In this document: positions 25,135 through 60,157 of the stretch, one piece after another
Position numbering within the stretch: position 1 is the stretch's first letter
Layout of the letters: the number at the start of each line of letters is the position of its first letter
DNA from: Spirochaetia bacterium
Lineage (GTDB): Bacteria; Spirochaetota; Spirochaetia; UBA9216
Assembly (NCBI GenBank): GCA_965140585.1
Contig: OZ223270.1
Coordinates: forward strand, 32,001 to 96,000
Length of the DNA: 64,000 nucleotides
Direction: 5' to 3'
Notes under the pieces: model-generated
Seen by the model: only the letters and a program-made list of their open reading frames with translations
Databases searched by the model: none
Told to the model about the DNA's origin: nothing
Program-made: the position numbers and the translations under genes

Positions 25135-25296
25135 AACTCCTTCTAAATAGATACTTTTTTAATTATTTCTTGATTATAATCTAACGATATATGATCATAG
25201 TTTATTATCTTGTCAATAGAATTTATTCGGCGAATCCATTACGGTTATAACCTGAGATTCTCAACAATCATCTATTTTTCAATACGGGGGATTTTT

Positions 25297-26681: not shown

Positions 26682-26709
26682 AAAAAAAAGGGAGTCACGA
26701 CTGACTCCC
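26682..26709 (-). terminator. Intrinsic terminator downstream of dctP
   Basis: GGGAGTCA-cgac-TGACTCCC hairpin with A8 (U-tail on the minus strand). Confidence 0.7.
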
Positions 26710-26747
26710 CCCGGCAACTACGATTTACCTTAAAAATATCAAATATT

Positions 26748-27794
26748 TTATTTTTTAGCCTTTGCAAGACTGTCAAAAAGACTGTCAACGAGATCTGCAC
26801 CCAGATCATCTGCAATCATTTTGTTTGTACCTTCTGCAATTTTCTTCATATCTGAGTAAAGCTTCTCACTCGGCTGGAGGAACTCCATTCCCTTTTCTTT
26901 TGCCATAGCTGCAAACATTATATCATCCTTTTCGCCGCCTTCAGCGATTCTTGGAGTAGCTCTGTCAATGAACTGCATAAGAACGTCCTGCTGAGCCTTT
27001 GACATGCTGTTCCAGGTATCAAGACCTGTAACCATCTGCACGAAGAAAAGTACATGGTTAGTGAGAACAACATAATCCTGCTGTTCATGGAAACCATTAA
27101 GAACACATACAACTACCGGGTTTTCCTGTGCATCAACAAGGCCCTGCTGAAGAGCAAGATAAAGTTCTGCGAAATTGATAGGAGTTGCACTTGCTCCAAG
27201 AGAATTCCAGAAATTCATGTGATACTTGTTTTCCATGGTTCTTATTCTAATTCCCTTGAAATCATCAATATTCTCAATTTTCTTGCTAGAAGACATAACT
27301 CTGTACATTCTTGAGCTGAAAAGAGTAAGAAGCTTGAATCCTGCTTTTTCAAAAGCAGCATCCATTTTTGTACGGAAATCACCTACTTCACCGCTCATAA
27401 CTGCATCAATTTCGTCCCAGGAATATCCTGCGAAAGCCATCGGCATATCAAGAACAGCAACCTCAGGAACAAAGGATACCATTGGTGATGGTGCACCGAA
27501 GAGTATTCCCTGATCTCCGAGCTGTACAGATTCAGCCATTTCACGGTCACCGCCAAGCTGTGCAGCCGGGTAGATGTCAAACTTGAATACACCATCGGTT
27601 TCTTCAGCAATTTTTGCGGCTTCTTCTTTAACAACGATATCACCTGATTGACCTTCAGCAGAGGCATAACCGATTGATATTGTTATAGGTTTAAGTGTAC
27701 CGTCATCAGCAGTCTCACCCTGGCCTCCTGCAAATGAGTAGCCTGCAACAGCAATTGCAAGCACAAGAACTAATACGATTTTTTTTGCTTTCAT
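26748..27794 (-). CDS. dctP: TRAP transporter substrate-binding protein
   Basis: Signal ending SFAGG; YPAAQLG, KGIRIRTM (carboxylate-binding Arg), ELYLALQQGLVDAQENP; AAGGAG RBS before ATG 27794. Confidence 0.92.
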   Translation of the reverse strand: MKAKKIVLVLVLAIAVAGYSFAGGQGETADDGTLKPITISIGYASAEGQSGDIVVKEEAAKIAEETDGVFKFDIYPAAQLGGDREMAESVQLGDQGILFGAPSPMVSFVPEVAVLDMPMAFAGYSWDEIDAVMSGEVGDFRTKMDAAFEKAGFKLLTLFSSRMYRVMSSSKKIENIDDFKGIRIRTMENKYHMNFWNSLGASATPINFAELYLALQQGLVDAQENPVVVCVLNGFHEQQDYVVLTNHVLFFVQMVTGLDTWNSMSKAQQDVLMQFIDRATPRIAEGGEKDDIMFAAMAKEKGMEFLQPSEKLYSDMKKIAEGTNKMIADDLGADLVDSLFDSLAKAKK

Positions 27795-27853
27795 TAAACA
27801 CTCCTTAAAAAGCATATACTACGTGTAAAAAACACGGTTAAGCCGAATTTAAA

Positions 27854-29161
27854 TCATCCTTTCATTAGATTAACGAGAAAAAGGCTGATATCGGGTATGA
27901 ATGCTATTAGTAAAAGGGCAATACCGAAACTCAGCACAAAGGGGATGGCCTTGCGGCCTACAGAGAATGCATTCTCATTTACCATTGGTGATATAACAAA
28001 GAGGTTCATACCAAAAGGCGGTGTTACCATTCCTATTGCGAGACAGGAAACCATGATAATACAAAGATGAACCGGGCTTACACCCATCATTACGCCTACC
28101 GGGGCAAACACCGGACCGAGAATTACAACGGCAAAACCTACATCCATAACCATTCCCATCAGCAGCAGAAGGATAATAATCCCTACAATAAATAGAAACG
28201 GTGTTGAAAGAACACTTGATACAAAGGCTCCGACTATACTTGCAGTCTTTAAAACTGTCATCATACGGCTGAAAGACATTGCAAGAGCAATTACCATTAC
28301 CAATGGTGCATACTGCGAAACAGCTTTGGCAAAAATCGGGATAATCTCATTAAACTTTATGGTTTTATAGATAAACAGAGAAACTATCAGCGAATAAGCG
28401 ACAGAAATGGTCGCGGCCTCTGTTGGTGTAACAATACCGCTGTAGATACCTCCCAGGATGATAATAGGAGACATCAACGCGAAAAAACTTTCTCTAAATA
28501 CCCTGAAAAACCCCTTTGCCTTAAGCTCATCAACAGCGGAGTCTATCTTAACACGATCTTCACCATTTTTTTTGCAGTAAATAAATGTGTAGACCATTAG
28601 AGACACAGCAATAAGTATACCCGGGACGATACCGGCAACAAAAATTTCGCCGACTGAAGTCTGTGTCATCATTCCGTAAAATATAAACGGAATACTCGGA
28701 GGGATAATTACACCCAGCCCTCCTGCCGTAGCCACCATTGCCGCAATAAACTTCCTGTCATATCCCAGTTTATCTACTAAAAGAGGAATTGTCATTCCGC
28801 CGACAGCTGCAGCAGTAGCAACTCCGCTTCCCGAAATTGCACCGTAAAAAAGTGCAGTAACAATTGCGGCAATTGGAAGACCTGCTGTACGGCGGCCGAT
28901 TAGATAGGCGAAAACATCAAAAAGCTTCTTTGAAATGTCACCGCGGGCCATAACGGCTCCGGCAAGGATGAACATCGGAATGGCAATAAGAGGAATACTG
29001 TCAGCACCCTGTATTGCCCAGCGGATTACAGTATCAACTTTATACGGAACATTAGAGCCGATAAGCAGAGGAAAAAGGGTTGTAAGGCCCATTGAAGTAA
29101 CAATGGGAATCCCTAGAAATAGAAGTCCAAAAAAAACTAAAAATGCAAGACCAACTATCAT
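27854..29161 (-). CDS. dctM: TRAP transporter large permease
   Basis: AIPMFILAG, GAISGSG, IIPPSIP, TPTEAA, TPPFG. Confidence 0.92.
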   Translation of the reverse strand: MIVGLAFLVFFGLLFLGIPIVTSMGLTTLFPLLIGSNVPYKVDTVIRWAIQGADSIPLIAIPMFILAGAVMARGDISKKLFDVFAYLIGRRTAGLPIAAIVTALFYGAISGSGVATAAAVGGMTIPLLVDKLGYDRKFIAAMVATAGGLGVIIPPSIPFIFYGMMTQTSVGEIFVAGIVPGILIAVSLMVYTFIYCKKNGEDRVKIDSAVDELKAKGFFRVFRESFFALMSPIIILGGIYSGIVTPTEAATISVAYSLIVSLFIYKTIKFNEIIPIFAKAVSQYAPLVMVIALAMSFSRMMTVLKTASIVGAFVSSVLSTPFLFIVGIIILLLLMGMVMDVGFAVVILGPVFAPVGVMMGVSPVHLCIIMVSCLAIGMVTPPFGMNLFVISPMVNENAFSVGRKAIPFVLSFGIALLLIAFIPDISLFLVNLMKG

Positions 29162-29649
29162 TTCGCCCCCCCCTCTTTAGCTAATGCTTTGTATTTAATA
29201 ATTTTTGACTGAACATAACGAACCACTCCTAGACCAAAGCCCACAGGAGCTGCAAGGTAAACAAACTGCATGGGAATTTCAAGAGCAGAACTGACCTGCC
29301 CTGTCCTTGCTATTGCCATGAATATCATGATTGATCGATAAAAGAAGAATGAAAACAATCCGAATGTCATAATTGCCGCTACTACATCAATAACCCTGCG
29401 CGGCAATTCCGGGAATTTTGAATACAGCGCATCTACAGCAAGGATTTTATCCAGTCTGAAACAGTAACCTATACTTAAAAACGCAGTCCAGACAAACATG
29501 TAGCGGCACACCTCTTCCGCCCAGCTGAGCGGAGCCATGAAAACATAGCGCAGTATTACCTGGAGCAGCATTATCACTCCTATGCCAATCAGAAGAAGGA
29601 TCATTGCTCCTTCCTCCAAATGCCTTTCTATTTTGTGAAAAACATCCAC
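29158..29649 (-). CDS. dctQ: TRAP transporter small permease
   Basis: QVILRYVF...SWAEEVCRY; GTG start with GGAGG RBS. Confidence 0.9.
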   Translation of the reverse strand: MDVFHKIERHLEEGAMILLLIGIGVIMLLQVILRYVFMAPLSWAEEVCRYMFVWTAFLSIGYCFRLDKILAVDALYSKFPELPRRVIDVVAAIMTFGLFSFFFYRSIMIFMAIARTGQVSSALEIPMQFVYLAAPVGFGLGVVRYVQSKIIKYKALAKEGGAK

Positions 29650-29992
29650 CTGAAAAACCTCCCCTTATCGAAAAGCAAATATCGATTAAAAAATATCTTA
29701 AGTATATACAGATTATACGCAGATTATTCATCCTAAGCTCAGGATAGAAATCTGTCAACTTTTTTCCAGGCTAAACTATATTTCTATTAGAAGAATCTCT
29801 TTCAAAACTCAATTAATCAGTATGGATGATTATTTAGTAGAGTCCTCAACCATTTTACCCTATGAATATATTACTTTGCTCGATAACTGATAAAGATCGA
29901 TTTATACCAAATTGACTGATTTTGAGGCATGTCTATCACTTGCTTAAAAATAATAAGAGTGAAAATAAGATTTTCCTAAGGATTTTTTATTT

Positions 29993-30925
29993 TCATATTT
30001 CCGGCAAATGAAAAAAAAGCAGAATTTTGAGCGCAGTCAGACACAATACAGCTATCATGAGGGTACATTTCATATTCCGAAAACCTTTCACGTATATTTT
30101 ATCCGGAATAATATAATCTTTCAGATGAGGGTTCGTTCTTTCCACAGAAGATCTGATCTTGTATCGTTCCTTTTCAGCCGAACTCATCACTTCCAAGAAG
30201 GATTTTCGCCTTTTATTAAAATCTATGAGATCAAAACGTCCTTTATCCTGAATATATCTATTGATTTGATGGGCATCGCAGGCTGCACCCATAAAGAATA
30301 TAGATGAGATATTTTCCGTTCCGTCAATTTATCCATAGAAATTGTGACCTTGGAATCATGAACATCGGCCCCTGTTACAATTGCAGTCAGAAGAGTGCCA
30401 AGATCTGCAGCATCAAGATATAGTTTATATCCTGTCCAAAAGTGTGTTTTTTCTTTGCTGTTCTTCATCCAACCCCAATCACATGTTTTATTCAGGTTTT
30501 CAGTAATTTGCCTGCTTTTTGTCCATGCTGCTGATTTAATCGGGGATCTTCTTTAGGTAAAACAATTTCCCCTTTTTTTGGCAGCCCCGTATTTTTTTAG
30601 CTCGTACGGCTCTTCTTTATTATCTTTTTTCTTGTTTACTGACTTTTCCAGTGCTGAAATAGCGTTAGTATCCCTGAAAAATCTGGTAAACCCACATATT
30701 TTTCTTAATGAAGAATAGCTTTGCAACCCGAGGATGAGATCCTTGCTTGTGATGATTTTGAAAACAGATTTGGCAAGTAAAGCCCTAATGAAATGAATCA
30801 TGGCATATACTTTTCTGCCTGTAATTGAACTTTGTTATTCAACATTGGATAAAAAATCATCGATACTTCGGAGCATGGTAAGAAATGGGCTCACAAAAAA
30901 CATATTTATCAAAAGCAAGAATTTC
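29993..30925 (-). mobile_element. Degraded DDE transposase (IS4/IS5-like superfamily) remnant
   Basis: Fragments FIRALLAKS..LRKICGF; FWTGYKL.LD...VTGADVHDS; AACDA...YKIRSSVERTN.HLKD; several frameshifts and deletions; terminal IRs not identified. Confidence 0.8.
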
Positions 30926-31840
30926 TTAAAGCTGCCCGAACTCCCGTTTCAGAGAAAGGTACATACCTTCACGAATCCACTTTGTAAGCGAAGCTTCGTT
31001 CACCAGGTCATAACCATGTGAAACCCTCGGCATGCTGTGCAGTTCTGTCGGCACTGCAAACTCCATCAGACGTTTTGCATAATCAATACCTTCATCACGA
31101 AGGGGATCATATTCACATGTCACAACAAATGCCGGAGGAAGTCCGTATAAATCACGAGCCAGAGCCGGCAGCGCATAATATGAGGGTGCAGAACCGTTAT
31201 AGCCGCCGAGATAGAGCTGTATCACATCAGAGAGGCCGTCTCCTTTTACCATCGGAGTTCCCTCATAAAGCATTTTTGCAGAATTCGTAACAGCTATACC
31301 GGACAGAACAGGAAAATTAAGAATCTGCATTTTTATCGCCGGACCTTTATGATCCCGAAGATACAGACACAAACCTGCGGCAAGACATCCGCCTGCACTG
31401 GTTCCGAAAACAGCAATATTATCCTTGTCGATACCGTAATGATCGGGATTTTCATAAGCGTGTTCGAGGACAGCCCGGCAGTCTTCGAGTGCGGAAGGAA
31501 AGATATGTTCAGGGGAAAGCCGATATTCAACTGATACAACAGTACAGTCCACGTTCATCGCAAATCCGGTACACCGATGATTATCGTTATCAAGATCGCC
31601 TGAAACAAACCCGCCGCCGTGAATATTTAAAAGCATTGGAGTTCTTCCAAGCCCCTTTCTTTTGTATATACGGATTTTCACATCAGGTGCGCCGTTCAGA
31701 CCGGGCACAGAGCTGTCGGTAATTTCGAGTTCTTCTGGTGCATTATAATCCCGGTACGGTGCAAGCTTTTTGAAAAGCTCGAGCTGATCTGTAGGTAAAT
31801 TAAACAGGATTTCATACCCTGGATGCGGAAATAGTTTCAT
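30926..31840 (-). CDS. HSL-family (family IV) esterase
   Basis: HGGGF, VEYRLSPEH.FP, GTSAGG, DPLRDEG, HGY; start at ATG 31840 preferred. Confidence 0.9.
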   Translation of the reverse strand: MKLFPHPGYEILFNLPTDQLELFKKLAPYRDYNAPEELEITDSSVPGLNGAPDVKIRIYKRKGLGRTPMLLNIHGGGFVSGDLDNDNHRCTGFAMNVDCTVVSVEYRLSPEHIFPSALEDCRAVLEHAYENPDHYGIDKDNIAVFGTSAGGCLAAGLCLYLRDHKGPAIKMQILNFPVLSGIAVTNSAKMLYEGTPMVKGDGLSDVIQLYLGGYNGSAPSYYALPALARDLYGLPPAFVVTCEYDPLRDEGIDYAKRLMEFAVPTELHSMPRVSHGYDLVNEASLTKWIREGMYLSLKREFGQL

Positions 31841-31884: not shown

Positions 31885-31934
31885 AAATAGAAACAGAAAC
31901 AGTCGGGACCCCCCAGCCATGGTTGTCCCGACTG
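31885..31934 (-). terminator. Terminator-like hairpin after the 7-gene catabolic operon
   Basis: CAGTCGGGAC...GTCCCGACTG inverted repeat followed by a T-rich tail on the minus strand. Confidence 0.6.
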
Positions 31935-31952
31935 CTTAAAATTATTAATCGA

Positions 31953-32984
31953 TTAAAGTTCAAACATACATTTTACAGTTTCTTTTGCCTTGAAATCCTT
32001 GATTGCCTGTTCGGCCTCATCGAGTGAGTACCTCTTTGTAACCAAGGCTTCACCTGAAACCTTACCGGCTTCAAGCCAGCTCAGTCCCTTAATGAAATGT
32101 CTTTCAAGAAAGGCTACATCACCGTAGATAGTAATACCGCTTCTGATAGCCTTGATGGGCTGAAAATTCGATTCTGTATAAAGACCGAAACAGGAAACAC
32201 GGCCTTTTGCAGCAACCAGATCCAGCATATAATCCCAGACCTTTGGAGAACTTGCAGTCTCAATCAGAATATCGGCCCTCAGTCCGCCGGTAATCTTTTC
32301 AACAGCCTTTACAGGATCCTCATTACTTGCATTTACAATGTGAGTAGCCCCAAGTTCTTTGGCAAGTTCGAATCTCTTTGAATCAGGATCAAGACCGATG
32401 ATTATAATCTTTGCAACACCGGCAGACTTGAGTGCCTGAAGGTGTAGAAGACCAACTGTTCCTGGTCCAATGATAACCGCAGTTTCACCAATTTGAGGCT
32501 GTACATGTTCGAGCGAACGAACTACAAGACTCAAAGGCTCCATGATTGCAGCATCAACAAAGGAAATATTATCTGCAAGCGGGTGTATCAGCTGCGCAGG
32601 AAGTAGAACATACTCTGCGAAAGTACCGTCATAGGTAATACCAATGTGGTCCCAGTCTTCACACATGTTCTTGTTGCCTTTCCGGCAGTTAATACATACA
32701 CCGCATCCGCTTAATGCTTCAAATGCAACTCTCTGTCCGACTTCAAAGCCCTTCACACCGCGGCCAATCTCGGCAATAACACCTGAGCCTTCATGTCCCA
32801 TAATTACAGGAATAGGAACCGGTTTTCTTCCGGTGTATGTTGCATTCAGAATTGAAAAGTCACTATAGCACAGACCGGTTGCCTTAACCTGAACCAGTAC
32901 ATGGTTTTCGGTAACTTCAGGCTTAGGTACATCTTTTACTTCAAATACTCCAGGCTCTGCTGAAGTTTTAACTATCGCTTTCAT
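31953..32984 (-). CDS. Zn-dependent medium-chain polyol/cyclitol dehydrogenase (IolM/Tdh-like)
   Basis: GLCYSD, GHEGSG, CGVC.NC..G..NMC, G.FAEY, GPGTVG. Confidence 0.9.
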   Translation of the reverse strand: MKAIVKTSAEPGVFEVKDVPKPEVTENHVLVQVKATGLCYSDFSILNATYTGRKPVPIPVIMGHEGSGVIAEIGRGVKGFEVGQRVAFEALSGCGVCINCRKGNKNMCEDWDHIGITYDGTFAEYVLLPAQLIHPLADNISFVDAAIMEPLSLVVRSLEHVQPQIGETAVIIGPGTVGLLHLQALKSAGVAKIIIIGLDPDSKRFELAKELGATHIVNASNEDPVKAVEKITGGLRADILIETASSPKVWDYMLDLVAAKGRVSCFGLYTESNFQPIKAIRSGITIYGDVAFLERHFIKGLSWLEAGKVSGEALVTKRYSLDEAEQAIKDFKAKETVKCMFEL

Positions 32985-32997
32985 CTACACACTCCTA

Positions 32998-33966
32998 TCA
33001 GGATGGCCAGGCTATAGTCCAGATGTGCTTCCCTCCGGGCTGATCCGGACCCTTGAGAAGAGCTTCGATTTCTTCCTTGCTTCTCTGTGACATGTATTCG
33101 GCATCCGGAAGTTTACCTGCAGGAAATTTATCAAGTATATCGTTGTGAAGCTTAACTACGTAGTCACAGTATGCTTCGATGGCACCGAATGCTTTTTCAG
33201 CCTTTGCAAGTGAAGGCTTTCCAAGAACTCCTTCAGGATAAATAGCAAACTCTACTCCGCCGCCGCCGATAGCGCTCTGACCGGCCATTGGCATACCGTA
33301 TATGTCTCCGCCCTTGTCGATATGTCCCGGAGGCAGGAAGCCCCAGCATTCAGTATCAACAGCATGTTCCATCTGTATGAATTCTTCAAACAGGGCAAGA
33401 CAAACTGAGTTTTCAGCTTCATCACCGTGTCTGAAAGGAGTCTCAAACGGACCGCCGTGTTCTTTGTCCATCATTGCCTGACCAGAAATTTTCCATACAT
33501 CCATGAAAAAGATCATTGCCGGAAGCTGATATTTCTTTGCCCATTCCTGCATAGCTGAAGGAATGATATATTCCTGGCCGTGGCTGCTCATGAGGATCAT
33601 CTTTCTGAAACCTGCATTCCAGTAACCTGAGATTATCTGGCGTACAAGAGCAGAGTTTACATCGTCTGAGATAGGCACTGTAAATTTCTGACCGAGGTGT
33701 GAGAACGGATGAGAAGCGTACCACATTGGTTCTGCAACTGTACATCCGGTTTTTTCTGCAATCATTTCACACATTCGTGTAACGATGAATACGTCTTCGC
33801 CCATCGGCTGTGAATCGCCGTGGTTTTCAGTTGAACCGAAAGGAATAAGGATAACATCGTTAACCTTGAGTCTTTCTTCAAGTTCTCTTTTTGTCATAGT
33901 CTGATAATAAATTTTATCAGTACTTTCCATTTTTCCGCCTTTGCGCGGAAGGTCCCAATTACCCAT
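32998..33966 (-). CDS. iolN: Creatininase-family ring-cleaving hydrolase, close to 3-dehydro-scyllo-inosose hydrolase
   Basis: YQTMT, GSTENHG..P.GED, TGCTVAEP.WY, WN.GFRK, HGQE, GGP.ETPF.H.DE, GHIDK.G, YPEGV.GK, FPAGKLP.AE..SQR match Thermotoga IolN as recalled; the substrate may differ. Confidence 0.85.
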   Translation of the reverse strand: MGNWDLPRKGGKMESTDKIYYQTMTKRELEERLKVNDVILIPFGSTENHGDSQPMGEDVFIVTRMCEMIAEKTGCTVAEPMWYASHPFSHLGQKFTVPISDDVNSALVRQIISGYWNAGFRKMILMSSHGQEYIIPSAMQEWAKKYQLPAMIFFMDVWKISGQAMMDKEHGGPFETPFRHGDEAENSVCLALFEEFIQMEHAVDTECWGFLPPGHIDKGGDIYGMPMAGQSAIGGGGVEFAIYPEGVLGKPSLAKAEKAFGAIEAYCDYVVKLHNDILDKFPAGKLPDAEYMSQRSKEEIEALLKGPDQPGGKHIWTIAWPS

Positions 33967-33976
33967 TATTTTCTCC

Positions 33977-34342
33977 TTATCCGTCTATTCTGTGGCTTGG
34001 AAGCTGAGGTGCGTAGATCCATACGAATCTTAATGTTTCTTCACCTGTGTTGAGGATCTTGTGCTTTCCTCCCGGCGGATTGTAAACACACACACCCGGC
34101 TCCAGAGGTATTTCCTGATCTTCTGTTACGAAAACGCCTCTGCCTGCTACAAAGAACATTACTTCTTCTTCAACGTTATGTTCATGCTCAGGGACCTGAC
34201 TGCCTGCAGGTGTTTCATTAACACCAACTGCAAGGTTCTGAGCGCCTACTGTTTTTTCTGAAACCAGTGTCCAAGATGTTCTTGCCGGTTCTCTTTTTAC
34301 CGGAGTTACATCTTTAATGTTAACTGCTATAGTTTTAGCCAT
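33977..34342 (-). CDS. Cupin domain protein
   Basis: PEHEH..EE and PPGGKH.I.N metal-binding cupin motifs. Confidence 0.9.
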   Translation of the reverse strand: MAKTIAVNIKDVTPVKREPARTSWTLVSEKTVGAQNLAVGVNETPAGSQVPEHEHNVEEEVMFFVAGRGVFVTEDQEIPLEPGVCVYNPPGGKHKILNTGEETLRFVWIYAPQLPSHRIDG

Positions 34343-34360
34343 ATTTCCTCCAAAAAATCT

Positions 34361-35119
34361 TTAAGCTATATATATTCCGCCGTTTACATCCAGCGCTACA
34401 CCCGTAATCCAGTCGGACTGTTCCGAGGCCAGAAACATAACTGACATTGCTACATCTTCCGGCGTTCCGTCCTTTATAATCTTTCTGCCTTCATTCCATA
34501 TTTCGAATACCTCAGGCGGCACCTGCTTTGTAAGCTCCGTCATTATTGGTCCGGGATTGATTGCATTCACATATATACCATCAGGCCCGAGCTCTCCGGC
34601 CAGACACTTTGTAAGCCCCATAACACCGGCTTTTGAACCGGCATAGTTACAGCCTACTTTCCGTGCTGTTTCTCCGCCGAGCGAGGCCATGTTGACAATC
34701 TTGCCTCGGCCCTTCTTTTTCATTACCGGAGTGACCTCACGGCACATCAGAAAGGTTCCGGTAAGATTTACATCCACAACCGAAGTAAAATCTTCAAGAC
34801 TCAGTTCGTTGATAGGCTTGTGCTTGAGGATCCCCGCAACGTTTACAAGAATATCAATTTCGCCGAACTTACCGGTTACTTTTTCCACAGCAGCCTTTAC
34901 ATCTGCTTCGTCTGTTACATTCACTTTGCAGCAGATTGTTCGCTTCCCTTCCGGGTCGAACTCTGCGGCAAGGGCTTCTGCACCCTCGGTATTCATATCG
35001 AGAAGAGCGAGGCTTGCACCAGCTTCCAGCATCATTCTGGCTATACTGCCGCCGATACCCCTTGAAGCACCTGTAACAACACAGACTCTTCCATTAAAAT
35101 CGTATTTACAATCCGCCAT
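34361..35119 (-). CDS. SDR family oxidoreductase
   Basis: TGASRGIG, LVNVAGI, YAGSK, DVNGG; acidic residue after beta-2 (LLD) suggests NAD. Confidence 0.92.
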   Translation of the reverse strand: MADCKYDFNGRVCVVTGASRGIGGSIARMMLEAGASLALLDMNTEGAEALAAEFDPEGKRTICCKVNVTDEADVKAAVEKVTGKFGEIDILVNVAGILKHKPINELSLEDFTSVVDVNLTGTFLMCREVTPVMKKKGRGKIVNMASLGGETARKVGCNYAGSKAGVMGLTKCLAGELGPDGIYVNAINPGPIMTELTKQVPPEVFEIWNEGRKIIKDGTPEDVAMSVMFLASEQSDWITGVALDVNGGIYIA

Positions 35120-35120
35120 T

Positions 35121-36851
35121 TTAGAAAATGTCCTCCTGTATTTTCACATCCCATATAGCATCCATCTCAGCCTTGCTCACATCAAATACGGTGTTAAAAG
35201 GCGGGAGAGGTTCTTCTCTCATAAACTCGGGAATATCACACATGTTTGAATCAATACCGGCCTTTTCATTGAATTCACGCTCAACATTGAGGCAGTCAAT
35301 AAACATCTTCTGAACATCCTTAAAAGTAAGTGTCCATCCGTATCGGGCATTGAGAAGTCTTGCGGCAAGTTCAGGATCCTTTACAAAGGCTGGTCTCAGA
35401 AAAAGACATACGCCGAAACTGTCTAAGAGAGCACCCCTTACCTGAAGTCTGTATGATATTGCAACCTGGCCTTCAGTACCTCTCGGATCCAGATATTTCA
35501 CTGTTTCAAGGGTATTTCCAGCAGTATGATCCGCGCCCATCGGCGACATTGCGTAGGTTACACCGATGCCCTTCAGGGATCTCGGGTCATAGGCAGGCAT
35601 TGCCTGGCCCTTCGTAGCAGGGATTCTTGTTATACCGAGAACCTTTCCGGTTGCTACCGCTCCTGAACCGATTATACGTCCGAATGGTGTTCCCTGACCG
35701 ACCTGACGAAGAAGGTCCTTGGCGCCTTCGGAGTCACCGAACTCAAGCAGTCCTGCCTCCATGGCAATGCCGACGGCCGCACCGCCGTCTATGGCATCAA
35801 TACCTACCTCGTTTGCAAGGTCGTTAAGGATGGCAATTTCATCAATGTCACCGATTCCGCAGTTTGATCCCAGAAGAGCGATGTTTTCATACTGAAGAGA
35901 AGCAACGTGAGCCTTTCCATCCGGGTCGGGAAAAATGTTTGAGCACTGAATCATGCAGCCCATAACGCAGGGAAGTCCGCGTTTGCCTTCACCGCCACGG
36001 CTGACTATAAGTTCGGCGACCTTATCTCCGTTAATTTCATCAGCCAGTTCAAAACTGCCTGAACTGAAATTCCTGGTCGGAAGTATGCCTATCGCATTAC
36101 ATGTTCCAAGTACTGCAGGAGTACCGAATTCATGTCTGTTATCAGTTTTGGGATCTGCCTTGATAATTGCGGCAACTTCACGTACTGCAGCCTTGAAAGC
36201 ATCCGGATCCGCAAGCGCATCAGGCTTTGCTCCGGCGTCATCAAAAACAACCGCCTTCACACCCTTCGCTCCCATTACAGCACCAAGACCGCCCCTTCCG
36301 GCAGTTCTCAGCTGCAGGCCGGTATGATCGGTGGTTGCAACAACTGCGGCACCAAGTTTATATTCACCGGCAGGTCCGATACAGAGAACTCCGACCTTAT
36401 CGCCGTATTCTTCTTTAAGAACCTTGATTGTCGGACTGGCTTCCATCCATTTAAGTTCCGGTTTTTCAACAAGAACTGCTGAATCATTTTTAACAACAAG
36501 AACATAGCACTTGCTGCTTTCAGGTACATCTTCAAGGATAACAGCCTTTATGCCCATCCGGCCCATTCTTCTGCCGACCAGACCACCGACATTGCTCTCT
36601 TTGACACCACCTGTCAGCGGGCTTTTACCGCCGATGGAAAGCCTTCCAGCTGTTGTCAGATTTGTATCTCCGAGAAGTCCGGTTGCTATAATCAGATGAT
36701 TTTTACGGCCGAGCGGATCACAGCCCGGATCAACTTCTCTCATCAGGTGGTTTGCTATAAACGACCTGCCGCCTTCATGCATTTCTTCTTCTGTCGGTTT
36801 CACAAAACGGATATTACCTGTTCTTGTATCTACCCTTAGAATCTTGTTCAT
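35121..36851 (-). CDS. Aldehyde:ferredoxin oxidoreductase family (W/Mo-pterin)
   Basis: KSPLTGG.KESN.GG, IGPAGE, GRGGLGAVMG.K, C..GC.I.C, YDPR, GADHT, DSFGVCLF. Confidence 0.92.
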   Translation of the reverse strand: MNKILRVDTRTGNIRFVKPTEEEMHEGGRSFIANHLMREVDPGCDPLGRKNHLIIATGLLGDTNLTTAGRLSIGGKSPLTGGVKESNVGGLVGRRMGRMGIKAVILEDVPESSKCYVLVVKNDSAVLVEKPELKWMEASPTIKVLKEEYGDKVGVLCIGPAGEYKLGAAVVATTDHTGLQLRTAGRGGLGAVMGAKGVKAVVFDDAGAKPDALADPDAFKAAVREVAAIIKADPKTDNRHEFGTPAVLGTCNAIGILPTRNFSSGSFELADEINGDKVAELIVSRGGEGKRGLPCVMGCMIQCSNIFPDPDGKAHVASLQYENIALLGSNCGIGDIDEIAILNDLANEVGIDAIDGGAAVGIAMEAGLLEFGDSEGAKDLLRQVGQGTPFGRIIGSGAVATGKVLGITRIPATKGQAMPAYDPRSLKGIGVTYAMSPMGADHTAGNTLETVKYLDPRGTEGQVAISYRLQVRGALLDSFGVCLFLRPAFVKDPELAARLLNARYGWTLTFKDVQKMFIDCLNVEREFNEKAGIDSNMCDIPEFMREEPLPPFNTVFDVSKAEMDAIWDVKIQEDIF

Positions 36852-36855
36852 TGAA

Positions 36856-37905
36856 TTAAACCCCGTTTCCTAACTGAAAGTTTATACTTTTTTCTTTCAG
36901 CAGTTTATTTACGGACTCAATTACACCGTCATCGACCTGAATGCCGTTCTCAAGTGAATTACGTTCCTTATCTGCTTCTATTTCGCCGGGCATGTAGATT
37001 TTATCAACACCGTCGGCTTTTTTAGATGATTTGATTCCATCAATATAGTCTTTTATCATCACCTCAAACTTATTATTATCAATGAACCTTGAGATATCAA
37101 CTGCAATTGCTGAAAAACCCACACCTGTTGGCCCGAGCGGCTTGTGGAATGTCTTAACATCCTTTCCGAAGCTTGAACCGGCGACCAGGCCGCAGAGCAT
37201 ATCAATGAACAGAGCCATACCATAGCCCTTTGGCCCTCCGACCGGCATAAGAGTACCTGCCATTGCAGCTTCCGGATCAGTTGTGCTCACTCCGTCGGCA
37301 TCAAAAGCCCAGCCCTCGGGAATCGGCTCATTCATTCTGAGTGCTCTTCGTATTTTTCCACGGGCAACAAGGCTTGTGGACATATCAAGAGCTATAGGAT
37401 AGTTATCGGCTGCGGGTGCAGCAATTGAAAAGGGGTTGGTTCCAAACATAGCCTCGGCTCCGCCCCAGGGTGCCATTGCAGGTGCGCTGTTACACATGCA
37501 GATACCAAGCATTCCCCTGTTCGCGGCCATCAGGCTGTAATGCCCCAGCAAGCCTACATGATTGGTATTCCTGAGCATGCACATTCCTATTCCGAACTTA
37601 CCGGCTTTTTCGATGGCCAGATTCATAGCAGCTTCAGCCGCAGTCTGTCCGATTCCGTTTCCGCCGTCTATATGCGCGATGGCAGCATCGTTTGTTATCT
37701 CTGTGATATTTGTGGGAACCTGAACCAGTCCGGATTCGATCCGCTGCAGAAGCATCGGCAGAAAGTACAGCCCATGTGTGGCAATACCCTTTGAATCTGC
37801 CTCTATCATTATTCGGGAAACTGTTTCCTGTTCAGACTCGCCGGCTCCGTATGCGGCAAGCAGCAGAGAAATAGTCTTGGCAAGATCTTCTTTTTTTACT
37901 TTCAT
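36856..37905 (-). CDS. Ldh_2 (type 2 malate/L-lactate/2-hydroxyacid dehydrogenase) family
   Basis: GIATHG, DGGNGIG, NHVG, GTNP, LDMSTS, GGPKGYG, PGE; start at ATG 37905. Confidence 0.9.
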   Translation of the reverse strand: MKVKKEDLAKTISLLLAAYGAGESEQETVSRIMIEADSKGIATHGLYFLPMLLQRIESGLVQVPTNITEITNDAAIAHIDGGNGIGQTAAEAAMNLAIEKAGKFGIGMCMLRNTNHVGLLGHYSLMAANRGMLGICMCNSAPAMAPWGGAEAMFGTNPFSIAAPAADNYPIALDMSTSLVARGKIRRALRMNEPIPEGWAFDADGVSTTDPEAAMAGTLMPVGGPKGYGMALFIDMLCGLVAGSSFGKDVKTFHKPLGPTGVGFSAIAVDISRFIDNNKFEVMIKDYIDGIKSSKKADGVDKIYMPGEIEADKERNSLENGIQVDDGVIESVNKLLKEKSINFQLGNGV

Positions 37906-37906
37906 T

Positions 37907-38578
37907 TTATTCCTCGATAAGGCCAAGGCGCTCAAAGACAGCGTCAAGCTTGTTTACAATTACACCGGGAGTTCCGGTTCCGAGGATTTCAGCTTTTTCG
38001 ATCTCTTTCTGAACTCTCTTCTGAGAAGCCTCAAGAACCTCTTCCATTCTTTCTCTTGGAACGATTACAAGTCCGTCATCATCTCCGAGAACCAGGTCGC
38101 CCGGATTTACAATTTCCCCGCCGAAAATAATCGGTTTATTTACAGAACCAAGCTGAGCCTTGACTGTTCCGCGTATACAAATCTGTCTTGAAAAAATCGG
38201 GAACCCCATTTCTATGATTTCTTCGCTGTCTCTGATTCCCCCGTCGATTACAAGGCCTGCAATACCTCTGGCTACAGCAGAACCTGCCATCAGACCGCCG
38301 AAGTATCCGGCATTATAAAAAGCTTGAGTAGTTGAAATTATTACATCACCGGGTTTTGCCACCTGGATGGCCTTGTGAAGCATCAAATTATCGTTGGCTT
38401 TGCATTCAACAGTGATTGCAGGGCCGCAGATCTTCATTCCCTTTGCAATTGGTTTAATTGCAGGGTCAACAGAACCCTTTCTGCCTGAAGCTTCATAAAC
38501 AGTTGCAGAAGCCTGCTCTTTGTATTTTTCAATCAGTTCTTTATCCGGTCTCTCGATGTTAGTATAAACATGTGCCAT
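37907..38578 (-). CDS. HMG/CHA aldolase (LigK/GalC-type RraA family)
   Basis: 223 aa with the N- and C-terminal extensions of LigK; ATVYEA.GR.G, DNLMLH, GYFG, IDGGIRD, GTVK..LGSVN.P, GDDDG. Confidence 0.85.
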   Translation of the reverse strand: MAHVYTNIERPDKELIEKYKEQASATVYEASGRKGSVDPAIKPIAKGMKICGPAITVECKANDNLMLHKAIQVAKPGDVIISTTQAFYNAGYFGGLMAGSAVARGIAGLVIDGGIRDSEEIIEMGFPIFSRQICIRGTVKAQLGSVNKPIIFGGEIVNPGDLVLGDDDGLVIVPRERMEEVLEASQKRVQKEIEKAEILGTGTPGVIVNKLDAVFERLGLIEE

Positions 38579-38681: not shown

Positions 38682-38709
38682 ATTATAACTCAGATATTCT
38701 AATTGTCAA
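38682..38709 (-). promoter_or_regulatory. Sigma70-type promoter of the catabolic operon
   Basis: Minus-strand TTGACA (38704-38709) N16 TATAAT (38682-38687); palindrome AGATTATAATCT at 38669-38680 lies immediately downstream. Confidence 0.65.
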
Positions 38710-39156: not shown

Positions 39157-41274
39157 TTAAAAAGAAACATCTACAAGGTTAACGTTGTCCTGTCCCCAGA
39201 CTTTAAAGTTCTTAAGTTCTCTATTCCAGGCATAGAGCTGTTCTTCCTGAACGCGATGTCTGAATTGAATATCTTCTGTAAGAAGTGCCATAATTTTGTC
39301 TTCAAGTTCTATTGCCTTTAATTCATCTGTTGTCACGACAGCTTCCTTGATCAGGACATTAAACTCGTCGCTCTGATATTTTGGTCTGTTCAGACCATCT
39401 GCTGCAAGCAGCAGTGCAGGACTGCAGGCAAGAGCCATTGCAATTACTACACGCTGCTTCATTCCTCCCGAAAACTGGTGAGGATACTCGTTAAAACGGT
39501 CTTCCGGAATGCCGACCCTCTCGAGGATTTTAACGGCCTTAGCATCAGAATCTGCCCGGGATATTTTTTCATGCAGCCTGATTATCTCAGAGATCTGCTT
39601 ACCGACGTAAAAATCGGATTAAGGGCAGTCCTCGGATCCTGAAAAATCATGGAAATTTTGTTGCCCCTGTTCTTTCTCATCTTTGCCTCGGACAGTTTCA
39701 ACAGAGCCTTCCCTTCAAAGAAAATCTTACCTCCGTCAATTACCGCGGGAGTATCCTAAGTATAGACTTTGCTATAGTGGTCTTGTCTGCTCCGGTTTCT
39801 CCAACAAGACCGAGAGTCTCTCCGGCCTTCAGCTCAAAGGAGACATCGCTGGCCGCATAAACCTTGTCTGAATCAGTTGAATAGTGGATATTGAGCCCTT
39901 TTATTGATAGTAAGGTATTCTCCATACGGATGCCTCCTACTTTTTGAGACGCGGATCGAGTGCATCTCGAAGTTCGTCGCAAAGCATATATAGTGAAAGA
40001 ACTGTAAGCATAATTGTTACCCCCGGAAAGATAAAAATGTGCCAGTAGTCTCGAATGTAGTTTCGTCCGCCGGAGAGCATAGCGCCCCATTCAAGGACCG
40101 GAGGCTGAGCACCCAAACCAATAAAACTCAGCATTGCAGCAATAAGTATAGCGCCGGCGACCCCCATAGTCACTGAACGATAAGTGGAGACATGGCGTTT
40201 GGCAGAATATGTTTTCCAATAATTCTCATGTCCCTGGCGTTGATGGCTTTTGCCGCTTCAACGGATTCCATTTCCCGGACACTCAAAAAAGAGGAGCGGG
40301 TCATTCGTGCATACGAGGTTATCAGTGCCCATCAGGTGACTTGCACTTGAAAGTGATAGAACACTGTCCAAATCCTGCTGCTCGTATGGATATGGCGCAA
40401 CAAAATCGGCAAAGACGGCTAAGGACTATTAATATCATGAAGAACAGCCCAACCATTGCCAGCTTGTTTTTAATTTTCTTGCGGTGATACTGACTCTTGA
40501 TACTCGGATCAATATAGGCGTAAAGGATATCAACAAGAAGCATTACAACACTGAAGGTGATAGATATAACCAGAACACTTCTCTGAATTGCGAGATAGTC
40601 GCGGCTCTTGATGGCTGCCACCATATAGGTACCGAGTCCCGGTATAAAAAAACCGATTCAGCAGCAATAGCTCAACTCATCTAAACACCAAGCAGTGCTC
40701 CGATTGTTGTAACAACCGGAATAAGAGCATTGCGCAAAGCATGTACGTAGATGACATTACCCTCGGTCTGCCCCTTTGCACGGGCAGTAGTTATATAATC
40801 CTGCCTGATAACCTCAAGCATACTGGAGCGAGGCTGCCTGGCTATTCGTCCTGCGGCATTAAGCGCAATAAGCATCGAAGCATTATCCTTCCATGAATAC
40901 TGGTTAACAGCCGACGCAACCCCGAGCGGCATTCCAATCAGAACAGAGAGGAGCACACTGAGTGCAGCAACCAGAAGAGTATTAGGAAATCTTGAAATAA
41001 TCTCTTCGGTTACGCTTCGGTTGTTGATATACGAGTTTCCAAGATCAAATTTGATAAAGGCGTTGCAGCAGTAAGTACCGAAACGGACAAGGAAGGGATC
41101 ATTAAGCCCCCAGTCATCCCGAAGTTCGTTTACTTCCTAGGGTGTTGCATCTGAACCAAGTTTAATATGAGCCGGATCTCCGGGTGTAAAATAAAGAAGA
41201 GTAAAAGCAAAAAAAGTTACTCCAAAAATTTCAGAGATCATCAAAAGAATTCTTCTGATAATGTATTTTCCCAC
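39157..41274 (-). pseudogene. Collapsed dipeptide/oligopeptide-type ABC operon (permease B, permease C, ATPase, tail of a binding protein)
   Basis: TPGDPA, RSSMLEVIRQDYITTARAKG, HALRNALIP, DILYAYIDP; LSFIGLGAQPP, LRDALDPR; [22 protein letters not shown]; premature stops, frameshifts and large deletions. Confidence 0.85.
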
Positions 41275-41928: not shown

Positions 41929-42573
41929 CTACAATCCTAGGACGTAAGAGCTTGCATTTGAAAGATGCTCCTGCATCCTCCTGCCTGCAGCCTCTTCATC
42001 TCCGGAGAATATGGCATCAAGCAGGGCCAGATGCTCTGTGAGGATATCGTTGAACCTTCGCTTGGTAAAACGCTGCCCGTAATGATTTTTTATTCTGGTC
42101 ATCCTGTCCATCAGGCCGCTGTAGATCTTTTCAAGCGAATCATTTTCTATGGATCGGATAATGGCAGAATGAATATTTTCCCATTTACCCCATTCCAGAA
42201 CCTTTTCCTCCATCAGTTCGCCGGCTTCGAGAATTTTAAGACCGTCTTCCCTGATTTTTTCCAGTTCAGTATTGCCCTTTCTAACAGCAGCCTTCCTGGC
42301 AACACCAACCTCTATAATTTCACGTATCTGGAATACATCCTGAATTTCATTTGAAGTAATGTAAGTAATGGTGGAACCCCGTCCCGGTACATTCTCAACA
42401 AAACCGTCACGCTCAAGCTGTCTCAGAGCTTCCCTTATCGGCGTCTTGCTTACGCCTAGATCTTCGGCGAAAACCGCCTCATTGATGGGCAGCCCCGGCT
42501 GAAGCTCTACATCGATGATTCTTCTCTTAAGGGCTTCATAAACCTGAACCTTCTTGTTTTTTGTTCCTTCCAT
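41929..42573 (-). CDS. GntR family regulator (FCD effector domain)
   Basis: VYEALK..I...LQPG, LGVSKTPIREAL, EH..LLDAI, MQEHL. Confidence 0.92.
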   Translation of the reverse strand: MEGTKNKKVQVYEALKRRIIDVELQPGLPINEAVFAEDLGVSKTPIREALRQLERDGFVENVPGRGSTITYITSNEIQDVFQIREIIEVGVARKAAVRKGNTELEKIREDGLKILEAGELMEEKVLEWGKWENIHSAIIRSIENDSLEKIYSGLMDRMTRIKNHYGQRFTKRRFNDILTEHLALLDAIFSGDEEAAGRRMQEHLSNASSYVLGL

Positions 42574-42818: not shown

Positions 42819-43583
42819 TCAGGAAACAAGCCCTTTAAGATAGGCCAGGGTATCTGAATCTGCATCTGAAGGCAGGTTGATTATCCCGCCGTAGCCGGCA
42901 CTTCCGAGATCTGCAAGAATGGTTTTATAATCGATACCGCCTCCGTTTTCAGGCGCAATACGAATCCTGCGGGTTACATCTGGGTTCTCAATATGAACAT
43001 ATCCTATACCATCAGAACTGCCCCTGGAGCCTTCAGGCCAGATTTTATCAATGCCGGCAAAGCCAAGTGAAACTGAAATATTGCTTCGCCCGATCCTGTT
43101 AATTACCTCTCGGGCTTCATCAAATGTATTTATATAATTAGTCCATTCTTCGGGAAGCGGTTCGATAAGTATATCAGTACCGAATTCTTCGCCTGTCTCG
43201 GAAAGCACAAAAAGAAACTGCAGAGCCTGCTCCCTGAAGGTTCCAATTTCACCCTCCATCGGCAGAATTCTTGCCCGGGGATTATTCCACAATGCATATC
43301 TGCAGCCAGCAGCCGATGTTTTCTCAAACAGTTTTTTAAGATATTCAGTCCAGGCATAAATATTAAACCCCTGCTCCGTTACACGAACCTCACCGGGCAG
43401 AATAGCGGTGCAGACATCATTTTTAAGTCCTGTTCCTGCTATCCTGGATTTCAGTTCTGAAATCTCAGTAACTTTTAACTGCTCAAGCGTAACCGCGGAA
43501 AGCTCAATCTGGTCAAAGCCGTCCTTTGCACAGTTTTCAATATCAGCCGGATCAGTAAGGCTTTTACTCCATTGAAAATTCAC
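42819..43583 (-). CDS. Sugar isomerase/epimerase-like TIM barrel (AP endonuclease 2 fold), divergent
   Basis: GFDQIEL, ILIEPL....NYINT..EA, YVHI..P..R..P, L...GY.G; two metal ligands appear to be missing. Confidence 0.7.
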   Translation of the reverse strand: MNFQWSKSLTDPADIENCAKDGFDQIELSAVTLEQLKVTEISELKSRIAGTGLKNDVCTAILPGEVRVTEQGFNIYAWTEYLKKLFEKTSAAGCRYALWNNPRARILPMEGEIGTFREQALQFLFVLSETGEEFGTDILIEPLPEEWTNYINTFDEAREVINRIGRSNISVSLGFAGIDKIWPEGSRGSSDGIGYVHIENPDVTRRIRIAPENGGGIDYKTILADLGSAGYGGIINLPSDADSDTLAYLKGLVS

Positions 43584-43593
43584 AGGCCCCTCC

Positions 43594-44031
43594 CTATTTC
43601 AGATTCACAAGCGCTTCAAGAGCAAGGATATAGCTTTTCTTACCAAAGCCGCCGATAACACCTACACACACCGGAGCAATAACAGACTGGTGCCTGAATT
43701 CTTCACGGGTGTGTACGTTGGAAATGAATACCTCAACACAGGGCAGCAGCATAGCACCTATTGCGCTGCGCAGTGCATAACTGTAGTGAGCCAGAGCGCC
43801 TGCATTAATTACCACCCCCTCAAATTCTGAAGGAGCCTCCTGCAAAGCATCGATTATTCCGCCCTCACTGTTGAATTGACGGCAGTCAACTTCAACACCG
43901 AGTTCGGCAGCACGGCTCTCAAGACCCGCATGAATATCATCAAGTGAGCCCTGTCCATATATAGAGGTTTTCCTTTCCCCCAGAAGGTTAAGGTTCGGAC
44001 CTGAAATTACAAGATATTTTTTATCACTCAA
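43594..44031 (-). CDS. aroQ: Type II 3-dehydroquinate dehydratase paralogue with degenerate active site
   Basis: GPNLNLLG.R...YG, INAGA..H.S.ALR, SNVH.REEFRH.S; but EVFISN and ALRSA. Confidence 0.8.
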   Translation of the reverse strand: MSDKKYLVISGPNLNLLGERKTSIYGQGSLDDIHAGLESRAAELGVEVDCRQFNSEGGIIDALQEAPSEFEGVVINAGALAHYSYALRSAIGAMLLPCVEVFISNVHTREEFRHQSVIAPVCVGVIGGFGKKSYILALEALVNLK

Positions 44032-44055: not shown

Positions 44056-44505
44056 CTATTTCCACGGGTCAAAGGGTTCATCCATAAGTGAACGCAGACC
44101 GAGAATATATCCGTGCGGGCCAAGACCGCAGATCTGACCAATACAGACCGGAGCAATTACCGAAACGTGACGAAACGATTCTCTTTTAAAAATATTGGAT
44201 ATATGTACTTCAACTACAGGCACCTGGGAAGCTGCAATTGCATCCCTCAGAGCAATTGAATAATGGGTATAAGCCCCGGCATTAAGAACTATTCCGTCCT
44301 TAATACCCCTGCAGTTCTGAATGAATGAGACAAGTTCACCCTCGGTATTGGACTGATAAAATTCCAGCTCTACACCGAGCTTCTCAGCCTCGGCAGCAAT
44401 ATCAACATTGATGTCTTCCATAGTTTTGCCGCCGTAGATACCAATTTCACGTTTCCCGAGCATGTTAAGATTCGGTCCGTGAATAACGGCTATTTTTTTT
44501 GACAA
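44056..44505 (-). CDS. aroQ: Type II 3-dehydroquinate dehydratase
   Basis: HGPNLNMLGKRE..IYG, NAGAYTHYSIALRDA, EVHISN, RESFRH.S; TTG start with GGAG RBS. Confidence 0.93.
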   Translation of the reverse strand: MSKKIAVIHGPNLNMLGKREIGIYGGKTMEDINVDIAAEAEKLGVELEFYQSNTEGELVSFIQNCRGIKDGIVLNAGAYTHYSIALRDAIAASQVPVVEVHISNIFKRESFRHVSVIAPVCIGQICGLGPHGYILGLRSLMDEPFDPWK

Positions 44506-59908: not shown

Positions 59909-60157
59909 ATGAGCTTTATACAGGGATCAAATCAGCTTGCGGTAATTCTCAAAAGTTTCCGGAAAAGCAGAAAACTAACGCAGGCACAGACTGCAGAGAG
60001 AACAGGCCTGCTTCCGAAAACAGTGTCACTGCTTGAGAACAATCCCGACAGGAGCACACTGGACAGCCTGTTTAAACTACTTTCGGCTCTGGATTTGGAG
60101 CTACATATCACAGAGAAGCAGAAACCGCGTAAGTCTCCAGACGGCGGGGAATGGTAG
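59909..60157 (+). CDS. hipB: HipB-like XRE antitoxin
   Basis: RK..KLTQ...A...GL..KTVS.LEN.P...TL.SLFKLL.ALDLEL; C-terminal Trp; overlaps hipA. Confidence 0.9.
   Translation: MSFIQGSNQLAVILKSFRKSRKLTQAQTAERTGLLPKTVSLLENNPDRSTLDSLFKLLSALDLELHITEKQKPRKSPDGGEW

Follow-up and report, generated by a model that had tools for sequence, protein, structure and literature searches.

The analysed DNA, hereafter the window, is a stretch of 64,000 nucleotides from contig OZ223270.1 of a Spirochaetia bacterium, and the subject of this work is a group of seven co-oriented open reading frames (ORFs) on its minus strand at 31953–38578. Neighbouring ORFs overlap or lie at most 18 nt apart (gaps of −41 to +18 nt), and in the 5′ to 3′ direction they encode an RraA/LigK-type class II aldolase, an Ldh_2-family 2-hydroxyacid dehydrogenase, a tungsten-type aldehyde:ferredoxin oxidoreductase (AOR), a short-chain dehydrogenase (SDR), a small metal-binding Cupin_2 protein, a paralogue of the inositol-pathway hydrolase IolN, and a Zn-dependent dehydrogenase (Zn-DH). 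An earlier sequence-only reading had described seven tightly packed genes between a consensus promoter and a hairpin; all seven ORFs were recovered on the minus strand at the coordinates given below, with families matched by Pfam and NCBIfam, and both flanking signals were found as well. A sigma-70-type promoter, TTGACA-16-TATAAT, which fits the consensus at 12/12 positions, is located at 38682–38709 on the minus strand, about 100 nt 5′ of the ATG of the aldolase gene. At the other end, a 13-bp hairpin with a U-rich tail (31897–31937, minus strand) begins 16 nt past the stop codon of the Zn-DH gene. The 131-nt stretch of the hairpin folds with −37.2 kcal/mol (z = −3.5), a value that was equalled by none of 200 shuffled sequences, while the pattern scanner missed it because of its long loop. 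The seven genes form a real, conserved operon.

The first gene of the operon (37907–38578; this and the other six on the minus strand) encodes an aldolase of 223 aa, which matched the RraA-like family of Pfam with 150 bits and the NCBIfam model NF006731 for 4-carboxy-4-hydroxy-2-oxoadipate (CHA) aldolase with 242 bits, exceeding the cut-off of 179. It aligns over its full length with PDB 3NOJ, the structure of a CHA/HMG aldolase (E = 1.4e-49), and the Arg-Asp pair, corresponding to Arg-123 and Asp-124 of 3NOJ, which we take to be the catalytic and the metal-binding residue, respectively, is retained in the window protein and in no fewer than 95% of the 55 distinct orthologues compared. The Ldh_2 gene (36856–37947; 383 bits on the Pfam model) is given as the longest ORF, and its true start may be some codons further 3′. 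Its top NCBIfam match was L-sulfolactate dehydrogenase with 297 bits against a cut-off of 500, and it did not reach any equivalog. The AOR (35121–36851, 576 aa) is composed of AFOR_N (177 bits) and AFOR_C (218 bits) domains and is related to PDB 9MQX (E = 3.7e-65) and 1AOR (1e-62). Its cysteines, a CxxxCxxxC group (CxxCxxxC is the AOR standard) and a fourth Cys, align with those of the solved AORs, and no equivalog cut-off of NCBIfam was attained by this protein. The SDR (34361–35119) was assigned by Pfam and NCBIfam models, and the cupin (33977–34342), our candidate for a ketol/aldehyde isomerase, by Pfam. The HxH...E...H metal motif of the cupin is kept in 73 distinct orthologues, and its closest PDB matches are small cupins, the functions of which are unknown or different. 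The IolN paralogue (32998–33966), a creatininase-family protein and the putative ring-opening hydrolase of a cyclic 1,3-diketone, scored 478.2 bits on the equivalog model NF041098 of 3-dehydro-scyllo-inosose hydrolase, far above the cut-off of 245. In the ESM Atlas both the cupin and the IolN paralogue were placed in generic clusters only (cupin and creatininase, respectively). The last gene, that of the Zn-DH (31953–32984), belongs to the Zn-ADH family of Pfam and reached 199.7 bits on the IolM model, the cut-off of which is 450.

The gene set was then sought elsewhere. A scan of one genome per species yielded 17 loci, 16 of which, from Spirochaetota and Atribacterota, carried an IolN 72–100% identical to that of the window, and one an IolN of 32% identity. 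From metagenomes, the best 80 (60–92% identity) of 283 confirmed relatives were taken. The resulting 96 loci (16 genome and 80 metagenome loci) form 54 groups when clustered at 97% IolN identity, thus they are not independent of each other. All were searched with the window proteins and with proteins from the loci themselves, and the 29 loci of at least 15 kb are called long loci below. The cupin gene stands immediately upstream of the IolN paralogue in 84 of the 90 loci that have at least 450 bp of upstream sequence, and the aldolase and Ldh_2 genes are found upstream in 42 of the 47 with at least 5.5 kb. Ldh_2, cupin and Zn-DH genes occur in all 29 long loci, the aldolase in 27, the TRAP-transporter protein DctP in 26, and an SDR orthologue of at least 50% identity in 22. 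The aldolase, Ldh_2, the cupin and the IolN paralogue make up a near-invariant core, which is accompanied by three types of DctP, and the aldehyde-oxidising enzyme also varies between loci. The set is thus conserved in Spirochaetota, Atribacterota and many metagenome contigs, a co-occurrence on which the sequence-only reading had made its proposal depend, and it is not a chance neighbourhood. Cluster-type IolN was present in 2 of 401 sampled Spirochaetota genomes (this one included) and in 9 of 86 Atribacterota genomes, consequently the cluster is patchy and not a phylum trait.

In the known inositol pathway, the 1,3-diketone 3-dehydro-scyllo-inosose is the product of IolM, and its hydrolysis by IolN gives 5-keto-L-gluconate, an acid with a -CO-CH2OH end. 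Comparison with the NCBIfam models of that pathway (NF041097, NF041098 and NF041099) revealed that the same genome has a separate and complete cluster of the Thermotoga type on contig 9 (locus L020, 5400–15400), which comprises an XylFGH-like sugar ABC importer, IolG, IolN, IolO, IolM and a second Zn-DH. This second IolN scored 525 bits against NF041098, IolG 456 (cut-off 355), IolM 544 (cut-off 450) and IolO 253 (cut-off 300). The IolN paralogue of the window is 48% identical to the contig 9 protein, versus 60–92% to its cluster-type orthologues, some of them in other phyla, and the Zn-DH of the window is 29% identical to the contig 9 IolM. Canonical IolG, IolM or IolO neighbours were found in 0 of the 29 long loci and in 0 of the 96 loci overall. 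Since a separate inositol route exists in the genome, the IolN paralogue of the window is free for another substrate, and, judging from the sequence relationships, it should act on a cyclic diketone other than the inositol-derived one. The genome, which is 98.5% complete, contains eight [FeFe]-hydrogenase-like genes, and no haem-copper oxidase was found in it. These features fit a fermentative anaerobe, a host consistent with an oxygen-sensitive tungsten enzyme.

The reading that we favour, with a probability of roughly 55%, is that the operon serves this fermentative anaerobe in the catabolism of quinate and shikimate by an oxygen-free, non-aromatic and hydrolytic route, the substrate, steps and order of which are inferred. 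The acid would be imported by the TRAP system, and shikimate would enter via 3-dehydroshikimate, with the type II 3-dehydroquinate dehydratases (AroQ) running in the hydration direction. The SDR and the Zn-DH (elsewhere enzymes of the GFO or AroE type) are predicted to oxidise C3 and C5 with NAD(P), via 3-dehydroquinate to 3,5-didehydroquinate, a cyclic 1,3-diketone, the ring of which could be hydrolysed by the IolN paralogue to HOOC-CH2-C(OH)(COOH)-CH2-CO-CH2OH. The cupin would then isomerise this ketol to a 2-hydroxyaldehyde, the AOR (in some genomes an NAD aldehyde dehydrogenase) would oxidise the aldehyde to the acid, Ldh_2 would convert the 2-hydroxy acid to CHA, and the LigK-type aldolase would cleave CHA to pyruvate and oxaloacetate. 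The arithmetic of this scheme closes: going from C7H12O6 to C7H8O8 takes four two-electron oxidations and two waters, which matches the SDR, the Zn-DH, the AOR and Ldh_2 together with the hydrolase. The C4 of CHA requires a ring carbon that bears both OH and COOH, and C1 of quinate has both, so the correspondence between the tertiary C(OH)(COOH) of CHA and C1 of quinate is the strongest chemical argument for quinate as the substrate. That the genes amount to a complete oxygen-independent, non-aromatising quinate/shikimate pathway, in which a reusable module of cupin, AOR or aldehyde dehydrogenase, and Ldh_2 is joined to a LigK-type ending, has in our estimate about even odds. An anabolic reading, in which the enzymes would work in reverse and make dehydroquinate, was rejected because the cluster includes a hydrolase, an importer and a GntR regulator, and neighbouring loci have DAHP synthase and dehydroquinate synthase.

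The aldehyde-oxidising step could be followed through the related loci. The AOR gene lies inside the operon in many of them and beside the aroQ genes in others (L016, and L017 through L021), while in the spirochaete loci lacking it (L006, L015, L019 and L036) the cluster contains an aldehyde dehydrogenase of the PF00171 family instead; no AOR relatives were found in the genomes of L015 and L019. The models nearest to the PF00171 enzyme are those of alpha-ketoglutaric semialdehyde dehydrogenase (490 bits) and 2,5-dioxovalerate dehydrogenase (429 bits), both matched under the cut-off. The presence of two unrelated aldehyde-oxidising enzymes at the same place supports an aldehyde intermediate, and the gene context is good evidence that this intermediate is an acidic aldehyde.

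Several observations weigh against the proposed pathway, and they touch the aldehyde step, the aldolase, the hydrolase, the first dehydrogenases and the substrate in turn. The AOR is missing from 11 of the 29 long loci, and eight of the 29, mostly from Atribacterota, have neither an AOR nor an aldehyde dehydrogenase within the locus; two Atribacterota genomes possess only distant AOR paralogues with at most 33% identity. The aldehyde step put forward from the sequence alone gains support from the NAD aldehyde dehydrogenase (found in 3 long loci) of some clusters without AOR, but the AOR itself is in place in just 18 of the 29. The aldolase remained under the cut-off of the stricter model TIGR02798 (ligK_PcmE) with 223.9 bits against 304.5, and its GYFGG motif has Gly at the position of Asp-102 of 3NOJ (GYFGD), presumably a second-shell residue. 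This substitution had raised the worry of a dead aldolase, an explanation that was dropped, as the position proved to be variable among orthologues from the same context (of the 55, 29 have G, 21 have D and five have another residue). Since the position varies and the Arg-Asp pair is kept, the Gly is hardly an argument against aldolase activity, and the worry is a weak one.

The variable Asp-102-equivalent position could also suit a different chelating group, and in this respect it speaks for another order of steps that we consider improbable, with the same substrate and ring hydrolysis. In that order the aldolase would split the ketol itself to oxaloacetate and hydroxyacetone, after which the cupin would form lactaldehyde, the AOR or aldehyde dehydrogenase lactate, and Ldh_2 pyruvate. 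The products and the redox balance would be identical to those of the route through CHA, but the solved relatives of the aldolase use a metal-chelating 2-oxo acid. Ldh_2 belongs to the malate/L-lactate dehydrogenase family, whereas its top match, sulfolactate dehydrogenase, acts on a 2-hydroxy acid with an anionic substituent. A module of cupin, IolN, Ldh_2 and AOR also exists without this aldolase, as cleavage of the ketol would allow; nevertheless, the replacement aldehyde dehydrogenase is nearer to the enzymes of acidic semialdehydes than to lactaldehyde dehydrogenase (490 versus 325 bits).

As for the hydrolase of the favoured route through CHA, a clade-specific Arg or Lys that could bind the carboxylate was sought in the IolN paralogue, and of the 12 clade-specific positions none is basic except the N-terminal K18 and K26. 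Arg-179, which stands beside the catalytic His, is also common to another clade. A maximum-likelihood (ML) tree was built from 85 distinct IolN sequences of the cluster type and 14 others. The cluster type formed one group that contained no control sequence; its deepest node had a weak support of 0.28, and the node that joins the group to its sister clades one of 0.99. The dehydrogenases that would make the diketone differ by locus (SDR, three types of Zn-DH, GFO/IDH/MocA and AroE-like enzymes), and no mention of 3,5-didehydroquinate as a metabolite was found in the searched literature.

The link to dehydroquinate comes from two tandem aroQ genes, which are located about 5 kb upstream of the operon (43594–44031 and 44056–44505, minus strand) next to a gene for a xylose-isomerase-like, epimerase-like TIM barrel (42819–43583, minus strand) that is always beside the aroQ pair. 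The tandem pair and the TIM barrel are found together next to the cluster in other genomes as well, and each is present in 13 of the 29 long loci. Two genomes with an aroQ pair by the cluster also have a type I dehydroquinase elsewhere, in a long ORF that is probably a biosynthetic AroD-AroE fusion, and of the two aroQ pairs in a further genome, a complete one, one adjoins the cluster. An AroE-family gene occurs in 7 of the 29 long loci; it lies inside the cluster in L016, L017, L089 and L111, and the L017 copy is under every housekeeping cut-off. The flanking regions of the cluster in L011 and L014 contain genes of the shikimate pathway. On the other side of the balance, aroQ was seen in 19 of the 96 loci, many of which are short, and the substrate is deduced from gene context only. 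Moreover, the aroQ genes of the window are the sole dehydroquinase genes detected in this genome, therefore at least one of them must serve biosynthesis, and the pair is weaker evidence for the quinate link here than in the other genomes. The connection with quinate or shikimate drawn by the sequence-only reading accordingly gains from the aroQ and AroE-family neighbours, the carboxylate-type transporters and the separate inositol cluster, but loses what the aroQ genes of the window have to give to biosynthesis.

These counts bear on the view, in our judgement rather unlikely, that a different carbocyclic or cyclitol acid is degraded by the same logic and that the aroQ neighbourhood is partly historical. 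The 16 long loci without aroQ and the biosynthetic need for the aroQ genes of the window would agree with it, whereas the type I dehydroquinase that two genomes have besides their cluster-side aroQ pair, and the AroE-family paralogues under all housekeeping cut-offs inside some clusters, argue for quinate or shikimate. The three DctP types and the several dehydrogenase sets would likewise suit a different acid, and the nearest solved DctP relatives are uninformative on the ligand; still, a LigK-type aldolase needs a tertiary carbinol bearing a carboxylate, which among the common natural cyclitols is supplied by quinate and 3-dehydroquinate.

The maintenance of two paralogous aroQ genes in tandem could be accounted for by an aromatic entry, which appears highly improbable to us. 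Gallate, the tautomer of 3,5-didehydroshikimate, would be released from esters and hydrated by one AroQ paralogue to 3,5-didehydroquinate, which would then follow the same hydrolytic route to CHA, an anoxic counterpart of the gallate pathway. LigK/GalC ends the aerobic gallate route too, but the hydration of an aromatic ring is energetically unfavourable by general chemistry, and the conserved SDR, Zn-DH and GFO dehydrogenases would be left without a role. Gallate entry would explain the two cytoplasmic esterases that flank the TRAP genes in this lineage, though such esterases are present in just 1 of the 96 related loci.

The TIM barrel beside the aroQ genes was also considered as a dehydroshikimate dehydratase. 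This assignment was unsupported, as there were no QuiC or AsbF sequence matches and ketose 3-epimerase folds were the nearest; one TIM barrel of L017 reached 94 bits on the QuiC model, the cut-off of which is 1200. The model of the window protein (pLDDT 87.9) is closest to ketose 3-epimerases and a 3-keto-glucoside 4-epimerase (E = 6e-14, TMq 0.84), and on the basis of this predicted fold the enzyme may epimerise a carbon adjoining a ketone, which we offer as a lead only.

By their identity to the window protein, the IolN sequences of Atribacterota can be sorted into three bands of 74–77%, about 50% and about 40%. IolG, IolM and IolO accompany the 40% band, and the cupin and Ldh_2, with no RraA aldolase, accompany the 50% band. 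One locus of the latter is L119 (3176–16999 on contig 55 of the Atribacterota genome G001), where GntR is followed by the two subunits of a fumarase-like hydratase, malic enzyme, a protein of 305 aa with no family, cupin, IolN, Ldh_2, a nitroreductase, the tricarboxylate-type importer TctCBA and an AOR; L120–L122 are similar. As cupin, IolN, Ldh_2 and AOR recur without the RraA aldolase, they behave as a module travelling with carboxylate importers, to which the aldolase is a specific addition of the window type. Clusters like L119 may open the ring of some other carboxylated compound by hydrolysis, which would be a second undescribed route of this kind.

Past the hairpin, the strand of the operon continues with an esterase gene and the TRAP genes dctQMP down to a strong intrinsic-terminator-like site after dctP (26687–26712, minus strand; 11-bp stem and T run). 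The esterase (30926–31840, minus strand) is of the hormone-sensitive-lipase family (Abhydrolase_3, 187 bits); its longest ORF extends to 31963, and its likely start is the ATG at 31840 after GGAG. The TRAP transporter, assigned by Pfam, occupies 26748–29649 (minus strand), with DctQ at 29158–29649, DctM at 27854–29161 and DctP at 26748–27815. A PDB search with the three DctP types gave moderately close relatives with no ligand named, and nothing was concluded from it on the substrate. The sequence-only reading had held that no gene is left over; this did not stand, as the system also includes, or may include, the esterase, the TRAP genes, the aroQ pair and the conserved gene of the TIM barrel. 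A further esterase gene, for a type B carboxylesterase (25210–26679, plus strand), lies on the other side of the TRAP genes, and both esterases appear to be cytoplasmic. They may act on chlorogenic acids and other esters to set quinate or gallate free; the one related locus that also has them is L003. Between the esterase and dctQ about 1.1 kb (29796–30897) is missing from the related genome L003, the flanks having 93% nucleotide identity; the stretch is unique in the genome and its small ORFs are without family matches. At 22836–25134 there is a further, decayed TRAP system, in which DctP (163 aa) is truncated at the N-terminus and DctM is in pieces; the system appears intact in L003.

On the promoter side, short permease and ATPase fragments of an ABC importer (39157–40956) lie between the operon promoter and the gene of a GntR/FCD regulator (41929–42573, minus strand; Pfam). 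The latter, the likely regulator of the cluster, adjoins the aldolase gene in most loci and is present at 30% identity or more in 17 of the 29 long loci. Pfam scans of the other main ORFs of the window found no dioxygenase, LigI/LigJ, IolG, sugar kinase or uronate genes, in agreement with the sequence-only reading, which had also noted no other lig/gal gene; single LigB-family and Amidohydro_2 genes are located elsewhere in the genome. Two kinds of neighbour recur in related loci. A uroporphyrinogen-decarboxylase/MtaA-like gene and a GFO/IDH/MocA dehydrogenase gene are found in some clusters (L012, 14160–15359; L017, 15333–16556; L008, L046, L061 and L067), and a GTP-type PEP carboxykinase gene adjoins the cluster in three loci (L015, 14399–15853; L089 and L101). 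A PEP carboxykinase would fit oxaloacetate as a product. Farther away in the window, a giant ORF of 4346 aa (5900–18940, minus strand), with a C-terminal FlgD Ig-like domain as its sole Pfam match, probably encodes a huge surface protein, and a gene at 60151–61482 (plus strand) encodes a HipA-family toxin kinase (HipA_C and Couple_hipA) unrelated to the operon.

Quinate and shikimate are abundant plant acids, which occur free or as chlorogenic-acid esters and reach anoxic sediments, guts and digesters, and the fermentation of hydroaromatic acids has been known since the 1990s. If the proposed pathway is true, it supplies the missing enzymes for this fermentation, seven or more of which are directly testable, and gives a tungsten AOR a new physiological role. 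CHA, so far a compound of aerobic aromatic degradation, would be reached by anaerobes from the alicyclic side, and, 3,5-didehydroquinate being hydrated gallate that may lose its water spontaneously, there might be a link to gallate as well. The automatic labels '3-dehydro-scyllo-inosose hydrolase' and 'CHA aldolase of aromatic degradation' would have to be corrected in such clusters, and uncultured Atribacterota and sediment spirochaetes would be consumers of plant hydroaromatics.

No description of a hydrolytic or non-aromatic anaerobic quinate route, or of an IolN connected with quinate, was found in a full-text literature search that left subscription journals mostly uncovered, and the sequence-only reading had known of none either. 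Several known systems resemble parts of the proposed pathway. The closest is the myo-inositol pathway of the Thermotoga maritima type (IolG, IolM, IolN and IolO), which was reportedly worked out by Rodionova and colleagues in 2013. Double oxidation to a cyclic 1,3-diketone and ring hydrolysis by a creatininase-family enzyme would be common to both, and the hydrolase of the window passes the IolN model. In contrast to that pathway, the partners in the window are a LigK-type aldolase, Ldh_2, a cupin, an AOR and a carboxylate importer, and the predicted products are pyruvate and oxaloacetate instead of a sugar acid. The isomerisation proposed for the cupin has its counterpart in KduI of pectin degradation, a metal cupin that acts on an acidic sugar derivative and interconverts its -CO-CH2OH and -CHOH-CHO ends. 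KduI is larger and has two domains, thus the window cupin is likened to it by the proposed reaction and not by sequence.

The protocatechuate 4,5-cleavage and gallate pathways would share with the proposed route their last enzyme (LigK/GalC), which is predicted here to convert CHA to pyruvate and oxaloacetate. They differ from it in the ring-cleaving dioxygenase, LigI, LigJ/GalB and LigC, none of which was detected by the Pfam scans of the window, and CHA would arise here without oxygen or an aromatic ring. Classical quinate/shikimate catabolism (Qui/Qsu/Qut) proceeds via 3-dehydroshikimate and protocatechuate. The proposed substrates, the type II dehydroquinases and, in some loci, an AroE-family dehydrogenase are alike, whereas the operon described here is accompanied by no clear dehydroshikimate dehydratase and no oxygenases, and the ring would be opened hydrolytically while still alicyclic. 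To our knowledge, no genes have been assigned to the quinate fermentation of Ilyobacter insuetus, which is a physiological description. A Fusobacteriaceae lineage fermenting only quinic and shikimic acids is mentioned in PMC10512730, which cites Brune et al. (2002) for it. The strict fermentation of hydroaromatic acids by I. insuetus and related isolates is the kind of physiology that the operon would explain. In our best reading, the new element is that the ring-hydrolysis logic of IolM and IolN is joined to a LigK-type ending and applied, under anoxic conditions, to a new class of substrates.

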